A stretch of 64,000 nt of DNA, from positions 947,435 through 1,011,434 of the forward strand of contig JBGAHS010000002.1 in assembly GCA_044226015.1 (NCBI GenBank), in the 5' to 3' direction. Numbering within the stretch: position 1 is the stretch's first letter; every line of letters starts with the position of its first letter. Below, in pieces: positions 39,462-54,650 of the stretch. Origin of the DNA: Candidatus Obscuribacteraceae bacterium. Its GTDB lineage: Bacteria; Cyanobacteriota; Vampirovibrionia; Obscuribacterales; Obscuribacteraceae. The notes below the pieces were generated by a model. That model was not told the origin of the DNA. It did not search any database and saw only the letters and a program-made list of their open reading frames with translations. Made by a program: the position numbers and the translations under genes.

Positions 39462-39785
39462 ATGGTGTCTATAACGATGTTAAACAAGCCAGTGCAAGTC
39501 CTCAACTCTGTTTTAGGTGCAGCCCTTTTGGCAGCGACGCAACTTTATGTCGGCACCGCAGCTGCGCTAGCAAAAGACCCTCTGGAAGCAGCCCAAGACC
39601 TTGCCGGAACCAATAATTCTGACCCCAATGGATTCACTCTGATGATCGTAAGCATCGGAATGTTGTTTGTGTTTGCTATTACACTAATAGTCGCGACTTC
39701 AGTGCACGTCTTCAAGAAAAAACCACAACGCCAGGGGCTCCGTCAGCCAAGCGCTAGTTATACCAGTTCAGCAGCTCAACGTTAA
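39462..39785 (+). CDS. Hypothetical small membrane protein
   Basis: Signal-like segment ending AAALA plus a TM helix followed by KKKP; 32-nt convergent overlap with moeA. Confidence 0.6.
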   Translation: MVSITMLNKPVQVLNSVLGAALLAATQLYVGTAAALAKDPLEAAQDLAGTNNSDPNGFTLMIVSIGMLFVFAITLIVATSVHVFKKKPQRQGLRQPSASYTSSAAQR

Positions 39786-41001
39786 CCTGCGAACCCTGTT
39801 TCAAATGTTCTTCATCCTGCGGAAAGACAATGAGTCCATTCGCTAGCGAAAGCCCGCCCAGCATGTGTGAATCTTGTCCCGTAGTTGGATGAGCATAGAG
39901 TTCGCCACCAGAACTCGAAACAACAGCACGAACCAGCTCAGTTCGTCCTTTTGCCTTACGCAAGTCACGACTTAGAATTGCTCTGAGATGCGAAACGGTC
40001 TGTCCGTACAACGCATTTTCCAGCCCCATGAGTTTGAAAATCGCTGGCTTCACGAATTGATTGAAGCAGACCATGGCTGAAACAGGGTTGCCTGGAAGTC
40101 CAAACACATACTGAACTTTGTTTTTGCGACGATGCTTTGCAGTGCCGAAAAAGACTGGTTTGCCTGGCTTTACAGCTACTTTATAGAAGATCGTTTGCAC
40201 GCCTAACTCATCATAAACTTGCTTCACGTAATCATGATCGCCCACGGACAATCCGCCCACAGTGATAATCAAGTCGGCGAAATCGAGCCCTAAGCCAACA
40301 ACTTTTCTCGTTTCACTCAAATCTTCACGACAACTCAAGGGCAAGTAATCATCAAGCCCCAACGCATCGCATGCAGCTTTAAGGGTGAAACTGTTTGAGT
40401 CATATATTTTACCAGGCGATAATGGCTTGCCCGGCTTTACGATTTCATTCCCCGTTGAGATAATCGCCACGGTCGGCTTTTTGTGCACCATAAATGATGC
40501 TTGTCCAAGAGAGGCAAGAAGCCCTATAACAGCCGGAGTAACGCGAACGCCTTCTGGCAGTATTTCTTGCCCGCGCAAGAATTCTTCTCCTCGACGGCGA
40601 ATGTTCTCACCCGACTTAGGTTCTTTGAGTATGCGAACGCGTCCACTTTCCTCAATGCAGTTCTCACGCATTACAACTGCGTCTACGCCGACTGGCACCA
40701 TTCCGCCAGTAAAAATTCGAACCGCACTCGATGAGGGCAAGCTCTCCGGCACTTCATCTCCTGCTCGAATTTCTGTCGCAACAGGAAGAACCGAGGGCGA
40801 TGCTTCGTTTGCTCCCCTGACATCAGACAGACAAACACCATACCCATCAACGGCTGAGTTATCAAAAAGCGGTAAGTCGTGCGTCGCTAAAACAGACTCG
40901 CCAAGCACGGCTCCAAGAAGTTTCTCCAGGCGCACTCTGACCTTCGGAAGTGCATTCACGTTCGAAAGCACAAGAGAACGCGCTTCATCGTATGAAATCA
41001 T
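39754..41001 (-). CDS. moeA: Molybdopterin molybdotransferase
   Basis: FDNSAVDGY, IFTGGMVP, STGNE, DSN, VKPGKP, GLPGNPVS. Confidence 0.96.
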   Translation of the reverse strand: MISYDEARSLVLSNVNALPKVRVRLEKLLGAVLGESVLATHDLPLFDNSAVDGYGVCLSDVRGANEASPSVLPVATEIRAGDEVPESLPSSSAVRIFTGGMVPVGVDAVVMRENCIEESGRVRILKEPKSGENIRRRGEEFLRGQEILPEGVRVTPAVIGLLASLGQASFMVHKKPTVAIISTGNEIVKPGKPLSPGKIYDSNSFTLKAACDALGLDDYLPLSCREDLSETRKVVGLGLDFADLIITVGGLSVGDHDYVKQVYDELGVQTIFYKVAVKPGKPVFFGTAKHRRKNKVQYVFGLPGNPVSAMVCFNQFVKPAIFKLMGLENALYGQTVSHLRAILSRDLRKAKGRTELVRAVVSSSGGELYAHPTTGQDSHMLGGLSLANGLIVFPQDEEHLKQGSQVNVELLNWYN

Positions 41002-41006
41002 TTAGC

Positions 41007-42002
41007 TCAACCACCTATTTCTACCATTGCACGATTTGACATCTCAGCAAGCTCTTCCATTGGGGGATGAGCCTCAGGCTTATTCGCCAGTGCATAGAGT
41101 ATCATCTCTCGGATTTCTAAATCACTAGCTCCAGAGCGTAATTTTTCCTTGAAGCTGATTTCGGCATCGTAAAACAAGCAAGATTTGATAGAACCATCAG
41201 CAGTCATGCGCAATCTATTGCATGTGGAGCAAAAGCTATCTGTCATCGAGCTTATGAAACTGACTTTGCCTCTAAAACCAGCGATCTGGAAGTCTTTGGC
41301 AACATCTGACGGAAGTCCTTTAAGAGGTTCCAACTGATAACGGGTTTGAATCACTTCTTTCATTTCGCCAAATGAATAGACATTTGCAGCATCCCAATGG
41401 TTATCTTTGAAAGGCATATATTCAATAAATCGAACGTTGAAATCGCGATCTCTCACGTAATCAACGAAATCTAGTACTTCATCATGATTGCGTCCCTTCA
41501 TCACCACCACATTCAACTTTATCGGGCTCAGCCCCACTGATTCAGCAGCATCTATTCCGGCGATGACCTTATCGAAATCGTCGCGTAAAGCTATTTCTTT
41601 GAAGCGGTCTGAACGCAAGGAATCAATACTAATATTGATGGACTGCAAGCCTGCGTTTTTCAAAGCAGCAGCTTTTTGTGCGAGCAGAACTGCATTGCTG
41701 GTCATTGAAAGATGCTTCAAACCGGGCAAAGTAGCAAGTCCTGCAATTAGAGCTTCGAGATCATGCCTGACCAACGGCTCACCACCGGTAATGCGAATTT
41801 TATCGATGCCCATTTCCACAAACACGCGAGCAACTCGAACAATCTCTTCAAAGCTAAGCAACTCATTTTTCTTTTTCAGCGGAATACCTTCTGGCGGCAT
41901 GCAGTAAACACAACGCAGATTGCACCTGTCTGTAACTGATATTCGCAGATAGCTATGCTTTCTTCCGAACTTGTCTATCAAGAGATTCTCTGCACTGCTC
42001 AT
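41007..42002 (-). CDS. moaA: GTP 3',8-cyclase
   Basis: LRISVTDRCNLRCVYCMP, TGGEP, FCSTCNRLR, C-terminal IGG. Confidence 0.97.
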   Translation of the reverse strand: MSSAENLLIDKFGRKHSYLRISVTDRCNLRCVYCMPPEGIPLKKKNELLSFEEIVRVARVFVEMGIDKIRITGGEPLVRHDLEALIAGLATLPGLKHLSMTSNAVLLAQKAAALKNAGLQSINISIDSLRSDRFKEIALRDDFDKVIAGIDAAESVGLSPIKLNVVVMKGRNHDEVLDFVDYVRDRDFNVRFIEYMPFKDNHWDAANVYSFGEMKEVIQTRYQLEPLKGLPSDVAKDFQIAGFRGKVSFISSMTDSFCSTCNRLRMTADGSIKSCLFYDAEISFKEKLRSGASDLEIREMILYALANKPEAHPPMEELAEMSNRAMVEIGG

Positions 42003-42505
42003 GATTTAAAACCTGCACTGAGGTCATTTGAACAAGATTTTTTTCTGGATTCATCTAAATGTTCTGGGCTCGAGGAATGCGCATGGCTCGAGCATTGCAC
42101 GCAATTCACCCATTCTGCAGTTTCGTCCACATAGTATTCTTTCTTCCATATCGGAACACGTGCTTTTATTTCATCGATAATGAAGCGGCATGCATCAAAA
42201 CCCTCCGCCCTATGCCTTGAGAGAACACCAACCCAGACAGCGATATCACCGATTTCCAAAAGCCCGGTTCGGTGAATACAGCTAGCAGCAATTATCGGAA
42301 AGCGCTCTGCAGCCTCTTTCATAATGAGCGCAGCTTCCTTCTCAGCTAGTGCCGCGTAGGCTTCATACTCCAAACGCAGAACTGCCTTTCCTTCATTATG
42401 ATTGCGCACGCGCCCTTCAAAGCAAACAAAGGCGCCCGCTTCTTTGCTGCTCATTTTGCGACTTTCTTCTGCCGCATCTATAGTCTGTTCTGAAAGCTTG
42501 AACAT
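41999..42505 (-). CDS. moaE: Molybdopterin synthase catalytic subunit
   Basis: FEGRVRNHN, LEYEAY, HRTG.L.IG, KARVPIWKKE. Confidence 0.95.
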   Translation of the reverse strand: MFKLSEQTIDAAEESRKMSSKEAGAFVCFEGRVRNHNEGKAVLRLEYEAYAALAEKEAALIMKEAAERFPIIAASCIHRTGLLEIGDIAVWVGVLSRHRAEGFDACRFIIDEIKARVPIWKKEYYVDETAEWVNCVQCSSHAHSSSPEHLDESRKKSCSNDLSAGFKS

Positions 42506-45735: not shown

Positions 45736-46920
45736 CTAGCGTCGGAAATTGCCACCAACGGCGATATTCCAATCGTCATCCCATCCGCCATAGGTGCGAA
45801 TTGGAATGTTGCCGTTTCGAGTGACAATCTGAACATTGTCCCATGTGCCTCGAGCGGGATCCCACGCGCCAAGATACAGATCGGCGCCAAATCCTTTGCG
45901 GTCAAAATTATTGACACGGCTCAGTAGCTGATCTTGAGCATACATGTCACCGCGCAGATTGTAGAGGTCTTCGCTGAGTTCCGCAGCAGCACCAACAGCA
46001 TTTCCTGTGTCAAGCTGGAATGCGATGTTACTCGCTTCGCGCCCTATATTGTCATTCCACCGTGGATAGTTTGGACTCTGCCTCCAGAACCAGTCGTCCC
46101 AGCCATGGTGCCAGCGATTCTGATCATGCCAGCCCCAGTGATGTCCAGGTTCTGGACCCCAACGATGCCCGCCCGGAAAACCATGATCTGGTGGATGAGG
46201 TCTTGGATGCGGATGTGGTTCTGGCCTCGGAGGATGTGGTTCCGGCCTCGGAGGATGCGGTTCTGGCCTCGGAGGATGCGGCTGCGGCCTCGGAGGATGT
46301 GGCTCCGGTCTCGGAGGATGTGGTTCTGGTCTCGGAGGATGCGGTTGCGGCCTCGGAGGATGTGGTTCCGGTCTCGGAGGATGCGGTTCTGGCCTCGGAG
46401 GATGCGGTTGCGGCCTCGGAGGATGTGGTTCCGGTCTCGGAGGATGTGGTTCCGGTCTCGGAGGATGTGGTTCCGGTCTCGGAGGATGCGGTTCTGGCCT
46501 CGGAGGATGTGGTTGCGGCCTCGGAGGATGCGGTTCCGGTCTCGGAGGATGCGGTTCTGGTCTCGGAGGATGCGGTTGCGGCCTCGGAGGATGTGGTTCC
46601 GGTCTCGGAGGATGCGGCTGAGGCCTCGGCACATCATGCCCGCCACCTGGACGTGGGAATCCGCCACCACCACCACCTGGGTGCGGTCTGGGCACATCGT
46701 GCCCGCCACCAGGACGCGGAAATCCGCCACCACCACCACCTGGGTGCGGTCTTGGCACATCATGCCCACCGCCTGGTCTCCCACCACCACCGCCTGGTCG
46801 TCCGCCACCACCACCGCCACCACGTAATTCAAACGCGATTTCTTCGTTCAATGCCGAGTTTCTATTTTCCTGCACCTTTCCCGGCGTATCTTTTGCAGGT
46901 TGAAAATTCTCAATTGCCAT
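45736..46920 (-). CDS. Pro/His/Gly-rich tandem repeat protein with globular C-terminal domain
   Basis: Only frame with plausible unique flanks; GGGHDVPRP repeats, 20 x PRP(E/Q)PHP, Trp/His-rich linker, about 95-aa C-domain. Confidence 0.8.
46210..46629 (-). repeat. Intragenic 21-bp tandem repeat, 20 copies ([14 protein letters not shown])
   Basis: Plus-strand unit near ggatg(t/c)ggtt(c/g)(c/t)gg(t/c)ctcgga, contiguous with no spacers. Confidence 0.95.
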
Positions 46921-47320: not shown

Positions 47321-48445
47321 CTATGCCGACCATATGCTCTTCTTGTTCCTTACTTTCCAAATAAAACCATCTAATACGTAGTGCGTTGATTGGGGCAATG
47401 CCAAAAACGGAATTAGTAAAGCCATGATGCTTTTGTCAGCAATGGCTGGCAGCACGACAAAAGGTGCAAACACATTAAGGTGTTCTCTCCAAATAAAACC
47501 ATCCCAGAGACCCTCTTCCAAATAAGCACAAACAAATAACAGAAGGATGAATGCAGGCAGATACCTTGCACAAACAGAAGCCAACATCTCTAGTAAGGGA
47601 GAGGCTTCACGCACTTCAGATTGCGAACTCGTCGGCTTATGCATGTACATCCAGATAAGTGCCATGTAAGGAACACCATGACTAATCACATTCACAAGTG
47701 TAAAAGACAAATCCGAATTGATTGCGATAATCGCCACCCACCAACTGAAGGCTGTTCCAAGAATGGTTAGAAGCTTGGGCCAATTTATGATCTTCAATCG
47801 TGAAAATAGAAAGCACTCCTTAAGCAAAAAAAGCACAGCACTTATTGCATAAAGAAGAAAACCTACATCAGCAAGAAATGCAGGTGTCGACTCGACGAAA
47901 TCGCCCTCAACAAACCAATTGAAGTTACGTGGCATATGAGTATGCCAAAACACTAGCGGAAATAAAACTGCAGCGTACAAACAAAACTGATCGAGAATCT
48001 GAAACCTTCTAGCTAGCGGCGAGTCAGTCCTTGAGTACAGCGCCAGAAAACCGTACTGTTGGCGCATAAAGTGAAACACCGCTAAGTATGCCAGACAACG
48101 CCAGAAGAAAAGTGCATCCACTGAGTAGAGCATCGCTCCAACAGCCCAACACACTATCGGTATACCAATTAGCAAGGATTTGTGCTGCTGCCAGGCGTTT
48201 TGGTTCAAATAGGTGCGGAACAATGTTGCGTAGACATGGGCCACATCGACAAAAAGAACGAAGCTAACCCATGCCCATAGAGGTAACGCTTGAAACTGCT
48301 CGATCTGTGGCTTCAGTACAAGAGCAAGACCAGCACTAATAAATGCTGGTCCAATTATCCACAACCCATCATAGGCAGCAGACTTCAACCACGGCTGCCG
48401 AAATTCAACACCTTCGCCTGCGGAATCTATTAGAGTTTGCATCAT
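47321..48445 (-). CDS. Polytopic membrane protein with conserved-looking His motifs
   Basis: About 9 TMs; DVAHVYAT, HFMRQQYGF, HGVPY, THYVLDGFIWK; ATGA coupling to the upstream oxidoreductase. Confidence 0.8.
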   Translation of the reverse strand: MMQTLIDSAGEGVEFRQPWLKSAAYDGLWIIGPAFISAGLALVLKPQIEQFQALPLWAWVSFVLFVDVAHVYATLFRTYLNQNAWQQHKSLLIGIPIVCWAVGAMLYSVDALFFWRCLAYLAVFHFMRQQYGFLALYSRTDSPLARRFQILDQFCLYAAVLFPLVFWHTHMPRNFNWFVEGDFVESTPAFLADVGFLLYAISAVLFLLKECFLFSRLKIINWPKLLTILGTAFSWWVAIIAINSDLSFTLVNVISHGVPYMALIWMYMHKPTSSQSEVREASPLLEMLASVCARYLPAFILLLFVCAYLEEGLWDGFIWREHLNVFAPFVVLPAIADKSIMALLIPFLALPQSTHYVLDGFIWKVRNKKSIWSA

Positions 48446-50061
48446 ACCTTTAACTCTGTAAGTACCCGCCGCGCACACTCGACTCCCTGATACTGAGCCT
48501 CTTCGAAGTTGGAAATTCCACTCATGTCAGAATGTGCAAAATGAATTCGTCCCATTCTCTGACTCATAGAGCGTCTAGATTCGCCCCAAATATGGCCAGG
48601 GCGAGGAGAAACCATTCCATGCCCCCACCGCCACATATCGATTGAAAGAATATTGCTACTGATTCCTGGATGCATTTTTTCCAAATCGTCGAGAATGACC
48701 TTCTTCCAATCTGTCATGCTCGCCTTCAGTAACTTCATGCGAGAAATATCGGTTGGGTCGGAGGATAAAGGATAGTAATAGGTAAGAACTGTTGGTCCTT
48801 GCCTGGTACTGATGTTCTGATGTGTCGCAACAACATATCCGAGTGAGGGACTGTAATAGCTGACATTGTCCCATGCAAGGTCTTCGCCGCGCGCTGCGGG
48901 CACTTTGGATACTGTAAGGTTCGCCACCATCCACGGTGCATAAGCAGGAAGAGAAGAACTGTCAACTTTTGCATCATCTAAAACATGCTTAGCAACAAAT
49001 CTGGGTGCAGCAAAAATTAGCTGCTCTGCAGCATAGCCATCAGAGCCATTGTCCTTATTCAGGACTGATAATAGAACACGCCCCTCTCTTTCTTTGGCCT
49101 TATAAACTATTGCAGCAGGAACAATGTGCTCACTCAACTTTTCTCGCAACTTGGACACGAGATAGCCATTTCCCTCGGGCCAGGTGACAACCGCGTTGTT
49201 CTCAGCATTGGCAGCGCGACCTCGTCTTCCAGCAAAGTAATGCAGGCCTGCCCAGGCTGAAACATCGGCAATACCTACTCCGTAATCATCTCTACAGCAA
49301 TAGTTCACGTACCATAGAAGCGCCTTAGAATCGAACCCCTTTGACTCAAGCCATTCTTTCATCGAAAGCTTATCGAGTTCCAAAAATTCTTTGTCCCGAG
49401 AGCTCAGATCAAGTGGAATTGCAAATGCTTTTTTTCCATCTGAACCTACTTTTTCACGCAGCTGAGCAAGCTCATCAAAGAACAGCGCCATTTGTTTAGT
49501 ATCCGACGGCTGCAATCCCTTTTTAGGGACTAATCCTTCTTGAAAGCTACCATCCTTCAACAAGCGCTCCTGCGGCTCGTGACACAAGAACAGCTCATCA
49601 TAAACTGGCAAATTTGTGTCCTTGTTTATATCGGTGATTACTCCAATTTCTTTGAAGAATTCCATTACATACTCAGACTCTTCGTTGGCTAAAGGCACAT
49701 AATGTGCAGCCCAGGGAAAAGAACTCACCGAGTTTTTTCCGGAACGCGAATTCCCTCCGACTTCATCTTCAAGTTCAAAAATTTTGAAATCACTGAAATT
49801 ATGCTTTTTCAGCCACCATCCAGCCGACAGCCCAGCAATGCCGGCCCCGACAATTGCGACTCTCAGAGGTTTTGACTCACGCGCAGGAAAGAGATCCGGC
49901 GCCCAGAGTTTATGTCCTCTCTCAAGCGAAGGACCTAACATACGGCAAGGGATGCGATCCTTACGTATATATTGTTCATAAAGAACCTTGCCCGCTACAC
50001 TGGCAGAACCCAAACCAATCAGCCCCTTGACGAAACTAGAGCGGCTAATGCGTTTCGACAT
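48442..50061 (-). CDS. FAD-dependent oxidoreductase (flavin amine oxidase-like)
   Basis: Rossmann IVGAGIAGLSAG, ELEDEVGGNS, RWGHGM, FAHSDMSG.S.FEEA; Tat-like N-terminus; GGAG RBS. Confidence 0.9.
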   Translation of the reverse strand: MSKRISRSSFVKGLIGLGSASVAGKVLYEQYIRKDRIPCRMLGPSLERGHKLWAPDLFPARESKPLRVAIVGAGIAGLSAGWWLKKHNFSDFKIFELEDEVGGNSRSGKNSVSSFPWAAHYVPLANEESEYVMEFFKEIGVITDINKDTNLPVYDELFLCHEPQERLLKDGSFQEGLVPKKGLQPSDTKQMALFFDELAQLREKVGSDGKKAFAIPLDLSSRDKEFLELDKLSMKEWLESKGFDSKALLWYVNYCCRDDYGVGIADVSAWAGLHYFAGRRGRAANAENNAVVTWPEGNGYLVSKLREKLSEHIVPAAIVYKAKEREGRVLLSVLNKDNGSDGYAAEQLIFAAPRFVAKHVLDDAKVDSSSLPAYAPWMVANLTVSKVPAARGEDLAWDNVSYYSPSLGYVVATHQNISTRQGPTVLTYYYPLSSDPTDISRMKLLKASMTDWKKVILDDLEKMHPGISSNILSIDMWRWGHGMVSPRPGHIWGESRRSMSQRMGRIHFAHSDMSGISNFEEAQYQGVECARRVLTELKV

Positions 50062-51547
50062 ATTCGCTCCACTCTGATTCAAACATGTGCACCAGCGCCT
50101 GATTATTCAACTTATTAACAAGATGCTCTGTCGGCATCATGTCCGCCGGAAAATGCAACATTTGAGAGAATGCATCTGCGGACAAATAGCGCAGTCCATC
50201 AGGATACTTAGTGGCAGCGACAAATGGTCGCTTCGAAGCAATCACATAGCCCCAATCTCCAAATGACGGAACATAGGCATGATATGGCGTGGTGTTCAAT
50301 CCAACAGTGTGCAGAGTATTCACAACACACCAATAGGAATTCTTAGCAAAATAAGGTGATGTACTCTGAATTACTATCAAACCATCGTCTTTCAACACGC
50401 TTTTCAATGTGCTGTAGAAAGTATCTGTATAAAGCTTCCCGAGTGAAAAATTGCTAGGGTCAGGAAAATCAACCGCAATAAAATCAAATTTGTTTTTGCA
50501 CTTCCGCAGCCAGAGAAATGCATCATCGTTGATTACTTGCACCTTTGGATTGTTCAGCGAATCTTGATTCAGCTCTGAGAAAAGCCCCTTGGATTTGAAC
50601 AGGTTGGTCATCTCTTTGTCTAAATCGACAAGCGTGATGTGCTGTACTGATGGGTACCTTAGCAGCTCACGCACGGCCATTCCGTCACCGCCACCGAGAA
50701 CAAGGACTTCTTGGGGATCCTTCAAGCTAGCCATGGATGGATGAATCAAGGCTTCGTGATAGCGGTATTCATCACGCGAGCTGAACTGCAAGTTTCCGTT
50801 CAGAAACAACTTAAAATCCTTTCCACTCCCGGTCAGGACGATGCGCTGATAAGGTGTAGAAGTTGAATAAATGACGTTTTCAGAAAATGTTGTTGATTCT
50901 GACAGAGTCATGATTTTGTCAGAGAAGGCAAAGCCCGATACCATAAAAATGATCAGACCATAAGCCAGCGTCCTGAACAGTCGCAGCCAGGGCATTTCTT
51001 CTCTGAACAAATGGATAGTCCAGATTGCAACACTTACGTTGAGTATGCCAAAGAGAAAAGAAGAACGAACAAGCCCAAGCACTGGCACTAAAACAAGGGG
51101 AAACAATACTGACGCAATTAATGCTCCGATGTAGTCGAAGGTAAAAACCTGCGATACAAGCTCCTTAAACTGCAAGCGATCCTTCAAAACTTGCATAAGT
51201 AGCGGCACTTCCATACCAATTAGAATGCCGATCGCACTGACTATCAAATAGAGAAGCACCTTAAAGTTATCGACATGGTTAAACAAGAGAAATAAAGTCG
51301 CAGCCGAGCAGCCACCAATAAGTCCGACCATGAGTTCAATTTGCACAAATGTGGCAATAATGTTCTTTTCGATAAAGCGAGAGAAATAAGACCCCACTCC
51401 CATAGAAAACAAGTAGACGCCAATTACAATCGAAAATTGAGTAACCGAGTCTCCTAATAAATAGCTAGCAACCGTACCGGCTATCAACTCGTATACAAGA
51501 CCACAAGTCGAGATTATGAATGCAGTTATGAGAAGTGGATAAGTCAC
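50045..51547 (-). CDS. speE: Polyamine aminopropyltransferase (spermidine synthase) with N-terminal membrane domain
   Basis: About 7 TMs (CGLVYEL) then TPYQRI, LNGNLQFSS.DEYRYHE, LGGGDG, VDFPDP, VPSFG.WG. Confidence 0.93.
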   Translation of the reverse strand: MTYPLLITAFIISTCGLVYELIAGTVASYLLGDSVTQFSIVIGVYLFSMGVGSYFSRFIEKNIIATFVQIELMVGLIGGCSAATLFLLFNHVDNFKVLLYLIVSAIGILIGMEVPLLMQVLKDRLQFKELVSQVFTFDYIGALIASVLFPLVLVPVLGLVRSSFLFGILNVSVAIWTIHLFREEMPWLRLFRTLAYGLIIFMVSGFAFSDKIMTLSESTTFSENVIYSTSTPYQRIVLTGSGKDFKLFLNGNLQFSSRDEYRYHEALIHPSMASLKDPQEVLVLGGGDGMAVRELLRYPSVQHITLVDLDKEMTNLFKSKGLFSELNQDSLNNPKVQVINDDAFLWLRKCKNKFDFIAVDFPDPSNFSLGKLYTDTFYSTLKSVLKDDGLIVIQSTSPYFAKNSYWCVVNTLHTVGLNTTPYHAYVPSFGDWGYVIASKRPFVAATKYPDGLRYLSADAFSQMLHFPADMMPTEHLVNKLNNQALVHMFESEWSEYVETH

Positions 51548-51561
51548 ATAAGCTCCATTGT

Positions 51562-51705
51562 TTACTTATGAAAGCGAGCGGCACTTCCTGTAGGCTTATC
51601 AGCCGCACCTGCGTCAGCCAGTCCCAGCCTGGTTCCCGATCCATACAGAAAGAAGAACCAAGCCAAAATACAAACGCAATAAACAATGTAGAACTTGTTC
51701 ATCAT
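51562..51705 (-). CDS. 47-aa membrane-anchored peptide ending in HK (below the ORF-track cutoff)
   Basis: Hand-translated MMNKFYIVYCVCILAWFFFLYGSGTRLGLADAGAADKPTGSAARFHK; ATGA overlap with the upstream DUF4178 gene; fills the gap before speE. Confidence 0.75.
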   Translation of the reverse strand: MMNKFYIVYCVCILAWFFFLYGSGTRLGLADAGAADKPTGSAARFHK

Positions 51706-53039
51706 GACTCACCCGATTGATAAATTGACGGCGTGAAGTCGCTCTGACTCCAGCGCTTCACATTGTCGTTGTAAACCGCAAATGAATAAAACATCGGAAA
51801 AATCGAAATCAGAATCAGCGAAATCCAATAGTTCGAAAAATCTGGAACATCTCTTTTCACAATCATACTCACAGCTCGAGTGCCACTATCGGTAAAAGCC
51901 CCCGACTCATAATCAAGACTTACATAGTATTTGCCAGAAGGAACATTTGAAAATCCAAGTTCTTCAGAACGAGAACCTTCTGACCATGACTCACCATCTG
52001 AATAGCCGTGATAGTACTCAATCGATTTCTCAAAAGGATAACTAACACCAGTGTCATTATTCACAAGAACGCCAGACACCCAGAACCAGGAGTTGTCTAC
52101 AGGCGCAAGGAAATACAAATCGACATTTGCCTTGTCCTTATCCAGTTGAAACACACGACTCGTTTGGCTGCCCTTTTTGTTCACCTCAAATGATATTTCT
52201 TCGGCATCAGCTATTTTGTTTGAAGACATAAAACAAGTGAGTATTTGAGCGCACGTTAGAAGTCCGGCAAAGATCAACCAAACTTTCTTCATCGAAGCAA
52301 GAGTTCGCTGGGAATGTGTTAGCTGGTTAGCCCCGACTCCTGAAGGCTTCCTAAACCCCTTGATCTTAAAAGCTTTGGCAACATCGTCAGCCTCTACATA
52401 CTCTCCAATGCTCCAATTAATTTCAAGCTTGTCCTTTTCAGAGGAAAGCATGTAAGGCGGGTTTATGTAGTCTGACATCTCGACAGATGTTTCAACATGC
52501 AGGTTCCAATAGAATTCTCCCAGCACAAATTCATAGACAGCAGATCCACGATTGAACAGTGTGTATTTTTTGCCATCTAGGAGAACTGATTTTGCGTTCG
52601 AATCATCTGGCACGTCTTTGATGGGGCGCACAAAATTCCAGTGCCCGCTTAAGTTCACCAGCCATCGATAACCATAATATGGGTTAAAGAGAAGATACTC
52701 TTCCCAATAATATGCACCATCTCGCCTAACGCAAAAACCAATACACTCCCACAGTTTCCCAAAAAGCGTGCCGCGAGTGCCGAATGCTATCAAAGGCTCT
52801 TGCCCACGTCTAGCATCGGCACAGCTATCTATTATTCTGAAGTTCGCATCTTGTGCATCGAGTACAGCCTTGCAAGACTGACACACCACAGAAAGTGATG
52901 CTCCAGGGTTACGTATAGTGACAGAGCCGCCGCAACGAGGACAAGAAATCACTTTGACTTTTCTTGGACGAGACGAGGCGGGCAAGTTAGGCTCGCCCTT
53001 TTTCGACTCAGACTCAAAATCGTGTGATTCACCAGCCAT
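51702..53039 (-). CDS. DUF4178 domain membrane protein with N-terminal Zn ribbon
   Basis: CPRCGG...CQSC, WEEYLLFNPYYGYRWL, GEFYW, YYHGYSDGESWSEGS, two TMs. Confidence 0.85.
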   Translation of the reverse strand: MAGESHDFESESKKGEPNLPASSRPRKVKVISCPRCGGSVTIRNPGASLSVVCQSCKAVLDAQDANFRIIDSCADARRGQEPLIAFGTRGTLFGKLWECIGFCVRRDGAYYWEEYLLFNPYYGYRWLVNLSGHWNFVRPIKDVPDDSNAKSVLLDGKKYTLFNRGSAVYEFVLGEFYWNLHVETSVEMSDYINPPYMLSSEKDKLEINWSIGEYVEADDVAKAFKIKGFRKPSGVGANQLTHSQRTLASMKKVWLIFAGLLTCAQILTCFMSSNKIADAEEISFEVNKKGSQTSRVFQLDKDKANVDLYFLAPVDNSWFWVSGVLVNNDTGVSYPFEKSIEYYHGYSDGESWSEGSRSEELGFSNVPSGKYYVSLDYESGAFTDSGTRAVSMIVKRDVPDFSNYWISLILISIFPMFYSFAVYNDNVKRWSQSDFTPSIYQSGES

Positions 53040-53658
53040 CGATTTCCCTCAAGTGCTTGAATTTGAAATCGTCAAACTCCTGGTAGGAACCAACATAAAT
53101 TCGCGTTTGGTCGGGTGCACACTCAATTGTTGCCATCTGTTTTCTTGGACCGCGTAAGTCTAAACTACGAGACCTTCGTCCCGCAGCAGCATTCATTGGT
53201 AATTCACCCTCACTGAATATACAGACCACATCATGAATATCATCGACCATGAATTCACCATAGGGAGACAGGGTCAAGCGTTTGCCGAGAGAGAAATGAC
53301 TTGCGTCAAAGTTCTCATTGAATTGATACGGAAAACAAACCGCATAAAATCCCTGCGCCTCAGCCAACCAACCTTCTTTGCCGGCACTATCGATCGTATA
53401 CCACTCGTTCCAAAACCCGTCATGATAACGAATTTTCAAACGTCCGATGATATTGAAAAACTGATTCTTGTAATAGCCCTGGGTTCCTACCTGCAGTGGG
53501 GATATTTCGTCCTGCAAATCGGCCATTTTCCCAATGGCTTCAAGATTCATATCCTGTCGCACAAGAGTTGATTTGCAGTACTGACATACGGCAAACACAG
53601 AGGCTTTAGATAGAAACTTTACTTCAGCACCGCAAGAAGGGCAGCTTAGTTTCAACAT
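53029..53658 (-). CDS. DUF4178 domain protein with N-terminal Zn ribbon
   Basis: CPSCGA...CQYC, SPLQVGT.G, G.WNEWY, GWLAEAQG, EGELP. Confidence 0.85.
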   Translation of the reverse strand: MLKLSCPSCGAEVKFLSKASVFAVCQYCKSTLVRQDMNLEAIGKMADLQDEISPLQVGTQGYYKNQFFNIIGRLKIRYHDGFWNEWYTIDSAGKEGWLAEAQGFYAVCFPYQFNENFDASHFSLGKRLTLSPYGEFMVDDIHDVVCIFSEGELPMNAAAGRRSRSLDLRGPRKQMATIECAPDQTRIYVGSYQEFDDFKFKHLREIDGW

Positions 53659-54650
53659 CAGGAAATTCTCTTTAGTATCTCCGCTTTCTTCGCATCAAAC
53701 TCATCCTGGGTGATCAATCCCTTTTGAAGAAGATTCCCAAGCTTTTCCAACAACTCAAAAGGGTCGACTTCCGGTGCTTGTGCTTTTCCAGCATCAGCAG
53801 CATGCTGCGTATTTTGTGCAAACATCTGCCCGATGACTTGTCCGGCACCCAAGCCGACTCCAGCGCCAGCCAGTCCGCCTCCATTTGCCGCCGCTGCAGC
53901 AATGCTGTCGGCAGCCTGGAAATGTGCGTACTTGTTCAAATCGCCAACAAGATTCATAGAAGAGCGCTTGTCGAGATATTCTTGAAGCTCTTCCGGCAAA
54001 GTAATACTCTGCACCATAAAGGAACAAAGCTTCAATCCATAGGTGAAGAACACCGAATCAAGTTCTTTCTTCATTTCTTCAGAGAACAGCATCTGATTTG
54101 CTGCAAGGTCCAGAAATGCCGTCTCAGCCTTACCCAACTTTGTCGCAATGCCAGTAATAATCGCTGCACGTAACTGCCCATCTAACTCAGCAACAGTGTA
54201 GGTCTGCCGCGTTCCACTAATTTTTTGATAAAAAGTTGTAGGCTCTTCAATTTGATAGGAAAAGGTGCCAAACGCTCGCAAGCGAATTGCGCCAAATTCT
54301 TTGTCTCTTACTGTGATAGGTTGCTGCGTTCCCCAGCGCTGGTCAATTTGTTCTCTTGTAGAGAAGAAATAGACATCTGATTTGAAGGGCGACTTGAAGG
54401 CCTTATCCCAATTCAGCAAAGTTGTGAGTATCGGCAGGTTAGCGGTTGTTAGCTTGTAACGACCCGGAGTGAAAGAATCAGCTATGTTGCCCTCATTAAC
54501 AAACAAAGCGAGTTGCGTATCACGCACAGTCAATTGAGCACCGTTTTGAATTTCACGATCCAACGTGGGAAAACGATAGGCAAGGACGCCATCAGTCTCT
54601 TCGGTCCATTCGATTACTTCGATAAATTGCTTTTTGAAAATGTCAAACAT
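53658..54650 (-). CDS. SPFH/Band-7-like domain protein with C-terminal SHOCT
   Basis: FIEVIEW, EIQNGAQLTVR, SPFKSDVYF, RWGT.QPI..RD.EFG, GLITQDEFDAKKAEIL; AGGAG RBS before ATG 54650. Confidence 0.9.
   Translation of the reverse strand: MFDIFKKQFIEVIEWTEETDGVLAYRFPTLDREIQNGAQLTVRDTQLALFVNEGNIADSFTPGRYKLTTANLPILTTLLNWDKAFKSPFKSDVYFFSTREQIDQRWGTQQPITVRDKEFGAIRLRAFGTFSYQIEEPTTFYQKISGTRQTYTVAELDGQLRAAIITGIATKLGKAETAFLDLAANQMLFSEEMKKELDSVFFTYGLKLCSFMVQSITLPEELQEYLDKRSSMNLVGDLNKYAHFQAADSIAAAAANGGGLAGAGVGLGAGQVIGQMFAQNTQHAADAGKAQAPEVDPFELLEKLGNLLQKGLITQDEFDAKKAEILKRIS

Follow-up and report, generated by a model that had tools for sequence, protein, structure and literature searches.

A seven-gene operon of a Candidatus Obscuribacteraceae bacterium encoding a membrane-fused aminopropyltransferase and a lysine-tailed microprotein

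Which molecule receives the aminopropyl group when a spermidine synthase-like enzyme is fused to membrane helices and encoded beside a microprotein that ends in lysine? The question is raised by a locus in a 64,000-nt stretch of a Candidatus Obscuribacteraceae genome (contig JBGAHS010000002.1), hereafter called the window. Seven open reading frames (ORFs) on the minus strand fill positions 47321..54650. In order they encode an SPFH protein with a SHOCT domain, a short and a long DUF4178 protein, a 47-aa peptide, an aminopropyltransferase (APT), a flavoenzyme ("oxidase") and a membrane protein with conserved histidines ("His protein"). Membrane-fused "spermidine synthases" are common. They are encoded in 28 of the 201 sampled genomes of the phylum, host included, and also in Proteobacteria, Gemmatimonadota and mycobacteria. 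Such enzymes are routinely annotated as spermidine makers, though published work, in its accessible parts, points to another acceptor. It is plausible, if somewhat short of probable, that the transferase faces the periplasm and aminopropylates the terminal lysine of the co-encoded microprotein. Its product is likely not free spermidine.

Conservation of the operon and of the terminal lysine

The seven genes form a real and conserved operon. They are not a chance arrangement because the identical order recurs in all 15 same-family loci that have the transferase. These loci came from 23 other same-family genomes sampled, and the order through the His protein was kept in each of them (14 complete, one ended by a contig edge). 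The tight coupling described in the initial annotation was borne out, with five overlaps and one 14-nt gap.

Wider conservation was followed in three samples. In the genome contigs one locus was hit, which duplicates G095. Scanning metagenomes with the alignment of the His protein confirmed at least 560 stretches, of which the best 80 were kept. The oxidase gene directly precedes the His gene in 70 of these 80; of the remaining ten, three have hardly any sequence upstream. In the 37 of the 80 with at least 6.5 kb upstream, oxidase, APT and DUF4178 occur in 33, DUF350 in 31, an S-adenosylmethionine decarboxylase (AdoMetDC) in 27 and SPFH in nine, where the end of the flank may hide it. The third sample comprised the 27 other genomes of the phylum, picked by the transferase alone. 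Here the oxidase is adjacent to the transferase in 3/27, the SPFH protein in 2/27 and the His protein in 1/27. The His gene was found in none of four plasmid-collection loci. The genes are co-conserved within the family; starting from the transferase, the link to the accessory genes is weak in the phylum. What remains as the core is the APT with its microprotein. DUF350 and the membrane domain of DUF4178 often accompany them, and one subtype has the oxidase, SPFH and the His protein as additions. One locus (L012, a duplicate of L021) was left out of the counts. Alignments A3 and A4 were made without the fused ORFs of L020 and L026 and without length outliers, A4 also without the divergent transferases of L029-L031; alignment A5 was made without non-lysine picks, near-duplicates and plasmid loci.

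The window peptide has one helix at residues 5-23 and the C-terminus ARFHK. A terminal His-Lys (HK) is present in 16/16 class-level loci. In 42 further oxidase-type loci the equivalents end in lysine in 41. The automatic pick accounts for 39 of these (38 HK, one GK), and two HK ends were read manually in another frame; the 42nd locus carries an HK copy with a frameshift. An adjacent membrane ORF ending in lysine occurs in 15 of the 27 APT-selected genomes, HK in the three with the oxidase and GK in the 12 without it. Five of the 12 genomes with an orphan transferase were examined, and four of these have a GK-ending membrane ORF within ~1 kb of a distant DUF350 gene. The third divergent class-level locus has an adjacent partner ending in GGGK. 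All six plasmid-collection loci, from Ralstonia, Burkholderia, Novosphingobium, Gemmatirosa, Ensifer and Tritonibacter, encode a peptide with a lysine end. As a background, lysine stands at the end of 45 of 659 hydrophobic ORFs of similar size from the 27 loci and at 7 of 368 C-termini of other operon genes, and HK or GGK ends 3 of 1727 short membrane-like ORFs of the host genome.

Little else is kept in the microprotein than the terminal His-Lys; the mean column identity of the peptide alignment, built from lysine-ending picks, is 21%. The tails are Gly-rich and flexible and comprise 18-38 residues. Judged by flanking charge, the favoured orientation is N-terminus inside and tail outside in 36/46 peptides, and in 25 against 8 without the charge of the alpha-amino group, which is a modest bias.

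Fold and predicted topology of the transferase

The fusion of an aminopropyltransferase to about seven membrane helices, noticed in the initial annotation, was confirmed. The protein matches PRK03612 (NF002956) over residues 5-496 with 665 bits at a cut-off of 472, and Spermine_synth with 141.5 bits; seven hydrophobic helices precede the catalytic domain. The predicted model consists of a six-helix half of the major facilitator superfamily (MFS) fold (1-186), helix 7 (188-207) and the catalytic domain (~218-495). VIA comparisons paired residues 1-186 of the model with one half of numerous MFS structures, OxlT being the best (8hpj; Z 18.5, root-mean-square deviation (rmsd) 2.5 A, 175 aligned). 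The chain holds one MFS half only. Residues 218-495 match SpeE of T. thermophilus (1uir; Z 34.4, rmsd 2.1 A, 270 aligned). MFS halves start and finish in the cytoplasm; helix 7 would therefore carry the catalytic domain to the outside. The mean numbers of Lys and Arg per loop in 50 transferase homologues (0.0, 2.0, 0.9, 4.0, 1.0, 3.0, 0.8) alternate in agreement with a periplasmic domain. The catalytic domain is hence predicted to be periplasmic, a site of the chemistry that the initial annotation did not contain.

Invariant in 50/50 homologues are GGGDG (285-289, with D288), D308, D342, D360-x-x-D363 and Q254/Y263/H264/E265, and they align with those of solved aminopropyltransferases. The same homologues share four invariant acids in or at the membrane helices, E20, E71, E113 and D138. 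The GGG(D/E)G motif is described in the accessible part of a published account as belonging to the site for decarboxylated S-adenosylmethionine (dcSAM) (PMC11107197). Nine of the 11 other Spermine_synth matches in the genome do not have GGG[DE]G, and the transferase would for this reason be a better aminopropyltransferase candidate than those nine. A complex prediction of transferase and microprotein scored 0.03 (mark 0.32); the controls did not fold, and the result weighs neither way.

Two further groups of Spermine_synth proteins were observed in the genome. Nine large proteins (L004-L008 and four more; open frames of 741-1180 aa) are those without GGG[DE]G. This expansion is unusual, and the proteins are more likely methyltransferase-like. 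An 892-aa protein (L003; host contig C9:225002-227680, plus strand) starts with a GGGDG-type aminopropyltransferase domain and has no N-terminal membrane part. After this domain come a hydrophobic helix and an extended low-complexity stretch rich in Gly, His, Arg and Trp. Enzyme and acceptor are possibly joined here in one chain.

Donor, acceptor and alternative explanations

DUF350 and AdoMetDC genes are absent from the operon, as the initial annotation had stated, and both are encoded elsewhere in the genome (8.19 Mb, 92% complete). A 72-aa DUF350 gene lies between peptide and APT in 14 of the 15 same-family loci. The same-genus genome G107 alone is without it, like the window, in which a 14-nt gap stands where the relatives carry DUF350. 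Three distant loci (L056, L075, L115) are likewise without the gene. The single DUF350 match of the host genome is located elsewhere and is without the WKEI and terminal His motifs of the operon type. The operon-type DUF350 looks lost in the genus of the window, with the remaining genes of the operon preserved. AdoMetDC is encoded twice in the host, as a standalone enzyme and in a soluble AdoMetDC-spermidine synthase fusion, both outside the window; an AdoMetDC-like gene is adjacent in 3/15 same-family loci. The donor can therefore presumably be made in trans, and the separate fusion enzyme would provide another route to free spermidine. For both genes the absence in cis represents a loss or relocation at this locus and not the mark of a different system.

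Two observations on DUF350 are added. The operon-type proteins (L033-L116) end in His, His-Gly or His-Ser in 41/43, a second conserved terminal histidine beside the HK of the microprotein. The Pfam model of DUF350, with 133 positions, extends past the stop codon of the 72-aa gene and covers the first transferase helices (G027:C5:34869-35222, G071:C239:40815-41165, G111:C3:58325-58690). This overlap hints at similarity between DUF350 and the transferase helices, or at merely common hydrophobicity.

From these genes and predicted structures we infer the following route. The AdoMetDCs would supply dcSAM in the cytoplasm. Two half-MFS domains may pair in a homodimer as a 12-helix carrier and export dcSAM; a cationic cargo would fit the four invariant intramembrane acids. 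The periplasmic domain would transfer the aminopropyl group to the epsilon-amine of the terminal lysine. The flavoenzyme, likely exported, may oxidise or remove the aminopropyl arm. Speculatively, the long DUF4178 protein could read the tail with its periplasmic domain and relay to the zinc-ribbon/DUF4178 and SPFH proteins of the cytoplasm under envelope stress. The four-histidine protein would be an optional accessory, possibly a metal enzyme. The complete scheme, an extracytoplasmic write-read-erase system for a new protein modification, is tentative and rather unlikely to hold in all its parts. In it the homodimer would export dcSAM and write aminopropyl-lysine, the oxidase would remove or oxidise this mark, and the long DUF4178 protein would act as its reader and signal the state of the envelope to zinc-ribbon and SPFH proteins in the cytoplasm.

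A membrane-bound acceptor in place of free spermidine had been proposed in the initial annotation, with lipid or peptide as the options. The separate spermidine route is in line with this proposal. So is a statement, in the accessible text of one article, that membrane-fused APTs of bacteria had been shown to take no part in the synthesis of spermidine or spermine (PMC12803844, citing Li et al. 2019); the passage leaves open whether these fusions are the exact subfamily of the window transferase. Between the two options, the peptide is the better-supported acceptor, since the lysine at its end accompanies the transferase.

That the acceptor is a lipid head group or some other amine of the envelope is unlikely, although the predicted outside topology would serve such an acceptor equally well. 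Oxidase and His protein would then tailor the lipid, with the microprotein only as subunit or regulator. The frequent position of the His gene directly after the oxidase gene among the best 80 metagenome loci would suit such tailoring, as would the four invariant intramembrane histidines, which may be compared with those of lipid-acting metal enzymes. The top solved-structure match of the oxidase is 2b9w, which we take to be a fatty-acid isomerase. Yet a lipid acceptor would not explain that, in both transferase subtypes, the terminal lysine alone is kept in the microprotein, and the His protein is adjacent in a single one of the transferase-selected loci. It is improbable that the transferase makes spermidine, or another free polyamine related to it, at the surface of the cell. 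A small diamine would be its starting substrate, and the oxidase, once exported, would degrade the product and so tune the charge of the envelope. The complete aminopropyltransferase fold and motifs, D360-x-x-D363 included, would allow this reaction; databases name the family "polyamine aminopropyltransferase", the oxidase has weak matches to polyamine oxidases and the spermidine dehydrogenase SpdH, and one paper, in its accessible part, names the homologue Rv2601 of M. tuberculosis a spermidine synthase (PMC11841054). The cited exclusion of membrane-APT fusions from spermidine and spermine synthesis and the soluble route of the host speak against it, and the invariant terminal lysine would be left without a role.

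The terminal lysine of Braun's lipoprotein (Lpp) is linked to peptidoglycan. The microprotein, with its membrane anchor, Gly-rich tail and terminal lysine, resembles this attachment and could be a tether between inner membrane and cell wall; its lysine, plain or extended by an aminopropyl group, would be cross-linked to peptidoglycan, and the operon would build and release the tether. The published association of such clusters with envelope-stress genes agrees with this function, as far as the accessible text shows (PMC11237479). However, a Pfam scan found no transpeptidase gene among the seven genes and the tail is short for a tether, which leaves this explanation quite improbable. Very improbable is a cytoplasmic location of both catalytic domain and peptide tail, with modification of a cytoplasmic target or a coupling of synthesis to product export. 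The synthesis of dcSAM in the cytoplasm, the lack of a canonical twin arginine in the window oxidase and several basic residues in the peptide tails would fit it, but the half-MFS with helix 7 and the loop-charge census both put the domain outside, and RR and lipobox-like motifs are common among the oxidase homologues.

Several points weigh against aminopropylation of the terminal lysine. The loci are related and partly redundant, so the counts overstate their independence. Alignment A5 was made from lysine-ending peptides only, and the invariant lysine in it reflects selection. The tally for orphan transferases comes from five of 12 genomes; one of the five (G130) has no DUF350 match and hence no site to look beside, and the class-level orphan transferases of L030 and L031 have no adjacent microprotein partner. 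That HK goes with the oxidase and GK with its absence may reflect one divergence of two clades, and the peptide of one oxidase locus (L033) has a GK end. The bias towards an outside tail is weak. The lysine could also be conserved for a different purpose, binding or cross-linking to the cell wall for example. In the transferase, a Met stands two residues after D288 in place of the Gly or Ala of the motif as given in the accessible text (PMC11107197). The substrate class of the oxidase was suggested mostly by its FAD-binding motif. Its signal reads RS, while the six other Tat-like (twin-arginine translocation) signals found in the host genome read RR, and export of the window copy is uncertain.

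The locus is a variant of a published type of cluster, and its architecture is not surprising. Operons with a 7TM-spermine-synthase, DUF350 and DUF4178 are reported from Shewanella (SO_3763-66) and M. tuberculosis (Rv2597-2601), together with a PspA-free band-7/SHOCT variant that carries an AdoMet decarboxylase along with a polyamine oxidase (Ravi et al., 2024, mSystems; PMC11237479). Aminopropylation of other substrates is already proposed there. The accessible text of that paper also bears out the remark in the initial annotation that similar neighbourhoods have been linked computationally to envelope stress. Window and published operons share the spermidine-synthase-like enzyme fused to 7TM, DUF4178, band-7 with SHOCT, a flavin "polyamine oxidase" and the absence of PspA. 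The window operon differs by two DUF4178 genes, by the addition of the His protein and by the lack of DUF350 and AdoMetDC. The "2TM" segment reported between band-7 and SHOCT was not seen in the window SPFH protein by a hydropathy scan. Neither a microprotein with a lysine tail, nor a membrane protein with four histidines, nor a catalytic domain in the periplasm is mentioned in the accessible parts of the paper. Ravi et al. and the preprint of that paper are the sole mentions of DUF4178 in the searched full-text literature, in which no paper demonstrates the product, the microprotein or its lysine; subscription papers lie mostly outside this search, and Li 2019 and supplements may bear on the matter.

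Compared with the soluble aminopropyltransferases 1uir, plant thermospermine synthase (6bq2) and SpeE of B. subtilis (1iy9), the window enzyme has the same fold, GGG(D/E)G and the conserved acids; it differs by an identity of ~28-30%, the half-MFS membrane anchor and the predicted periplasmic location. Clusters of AdoMetDC, a membrane(MFS)-spermidine-synthase fusion and DUF350 were reportedly described by Li, Kurihara, Kim, Liang and Michael in 2019 (Biochem J 476:2579). A membrane-fused APT-like enzyme with an MFS-like N-terminus, here on a predicted model, would be common to these clusters and the window, in which AdoMetDC is unlinked and the operon-type DUF350 lost.

Aminopropylation of the microprotein would narrow the question of the acceptor to one readout in mass spectrometry, +57.058 Da on the last residue of a protein of 45-90 aa that is often annotated merely as "hypothetical". 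If true, it would mean protein aminopropylation in the bacterial envelope and a fusion of transporter and enzyme that exports a derivative of S-adenosylmethionine.

Layout of the operon and its other members

Features of the operon are listed in Table 1. Family assignments are scores above the curated Pfam or NCBIfam cut-offs.

Table 1. Genes of the operon in order along the minus strand (positions in the window)
Product	Position	Strand	Evidence
Band-7/SPFH protein (Band_7_1) with C-terminal SHOCT, 330 aa	53658..54650	-	PF13421 248 bits, PF09851 33 bits
Short zinc-ribbon-like and DUF4178 protein, 209 aa, soluble	53029..53658	-	PF13785 26.2 bits (cut-off 25)
Long zinc-ribbon-like and DUF4178 protein, 445 aa, two membrane helices	51702..53039	-	PF13785 72.8 bits; hydropathy
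Single-helix membrane microprotein, 47 aa, ends His-Lys	51562..51705	-	ORF; helix 5-23; no Pfam/NCBIfam match
PRK03612-type aminopropyltransferase, 500 aa	50045..51547	-	NF002956 665 bits; predicted model pLDDT 86.6
Flavin amine-oxidoreductase-family enzyme, 539 aa, degenerate Tat-like signal SRSSFVK	48442..50061	-	PF01593 30.7 bits (cut-off 19.8), PF13450
Polytopic four-histidine membrane protein, 374 aa, ~10 helices	47321..48445	-	No Pfam/NCBIfam match; alignment n=113; model pLDDT 85.4

Read from the sequence, the overlaps at five of the six junctions comprise 1-17 nt: 1 nt between SPFH and short DUF4178 (TGATG), 11 nt between short and long DUF4178, 4 nt between long DUF4178 and peptide (ATGA), 17 nt between transferase and oxidase and 4 nt between oxidase and His protein (ATGA). 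The 14-nt gap separates peptide and transferase, with GGAG ahead of the GTG start. Scans of the operon for promoters and terminators gave matches only at the level of shuffled sequence. The PADLOC scan detected no anti-phage system; generic domain matches (mad2 methyltransferase region, FAD motif) occurred in two of the seven proteins.

Each DUF4178 protein carries an N-terminal CxxC..CxxC pair. The description of both as zinc-ribbon DUF4178 proteins in the initial annotation stands for DUF4178; the zinc ribbon gave sub-threshold matches only. The short protein has no membrane helix in the hydropathy scan. The long one has helices at ~253-271 and 404-422 around a predicted periplasmic domain of ~130 residues, in which W318, E341, Y343, G345, W352, E354, G355 and Y371 are conserved to 91-100% (n=55). 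This aromatic-acidic domain is a candidate reader of the alkylammonium tail of the peptide. The SPFH protein shows no hydrophobic helix at the threshold of the hydropathy scan and contains a Gly/Ala-rich stretch at ~247-277. Together with its infrequent presence in the wider samples, this leaves the membrane microdomain suggested in the initial annotation weakly supported at best, and SPFH is considered an optional scaffold.

The oxidase had been recognized as amine-oxidase-like in the initial annotation, and the match to PF01593 (Amino_oxidase) over residues 75-534 agrees with it. The glycines G72, G74, G102 and G103 of the FAD-binding motifs are invariant. Among solved structures, monoamine and L-amino-acid oxidases match best, for the most part via the N-terminal FAD-binding motif. 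PigB was matched with 54 bits at a cut-off of 850. The first Arg of the Tat-like motif is present in 52/52 oxidases, as RR in 26, RK in 11, RA in eight and RS in seven; a lipobox-like motif was found in 24/52 with a loose pattern. The window sequence deviates from the canonical S/T-R-R-x-F-L-K. The host genome encodes TatC, and export is likely for the oxidase family. An oxidase paralogue (E 1.9e-28; host contig C4:276160-277701, minus strand) has a canonical twin-arginine signal and is located outside any such operon according to the profile search.

Two apparent fusions of transferase and oxidase were noticed. The one at L020:7380-10643 (G079) was rejected: a single A is missing in a homopolymer in comparison with L014, likely a sequencing error. 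At L026:7539-10580 (G111), transferase and oxidase form one ORF of 1013 aa through an in-frame deletion that takes out the tail of the transferase and the Tat-like signal of the oxidase. An assembly error is possible; if real, the fusion puts both domains on one side of the membrane.

The His protein defines a large unnamed membrane family. Among 7997 candidates scored, 3955 were homologues, and the family comprises 1659 representatives at E<=0.001. Invariant in the alignment are H70, H125, H256 and H355, with Q129, Q352, Y356 and D359. A metal-binding enzyme is possible. The fold searches gave no clear match, with a best Foldseek E of 0.36 and a best VIA Z of 6.7, with rhodopsin-like bundles at background level. 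A profile search of the PDB reached E 0.034 and named Atlas clusters 0.77 at best. Genes of the family without the oxidase have no common neighbours. One ESM Atlas cluster of the family is automatically named beta-carotene 15,15'-monooxygenase. Like the Brp/Blh 15,15'-dioxygenases, the His protein is polytopic and has its invariant histidines distributed over different helices, similarly spaced. Membership in Brp/Blh (PF15461) was nevertheless rejected by sequence profile: 0/113 members match, and profile-profile comparisons (hhalign) gave a probability of 0.1-0.5%, with 0.5% against 120 Blh proteins. No Blh chain is among the fold-search matches.

Three distant paralogues of the His protein (L118-L120) are encoded in the host at C8:176590-177783, C12:63014-64198 and C4:11209-12273. 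They hold histidines at the four conserved positions and lie in unrelated neighbourhoods. A protein of 1278 aa (P0180) joins a His-protein homologue to an M1 aminopeptidase, a single case and possibly a read-through artefact.

Two neighbouring features of the window lie downstream of the operon. At 45736-46920 (minus strand), 400 nt from the operon, an ORF of 394 aa contains many P-R-P-[EQ]-P-H-P repeats and segments rich in Gly, His and Trp; it has no Pfam or NCBIfam match. At 39754-42505 (minus strand), three coupled genes are presumably the molybdenum-cofactor genes moeA, moaA and moaE, which they resemble in sequence.

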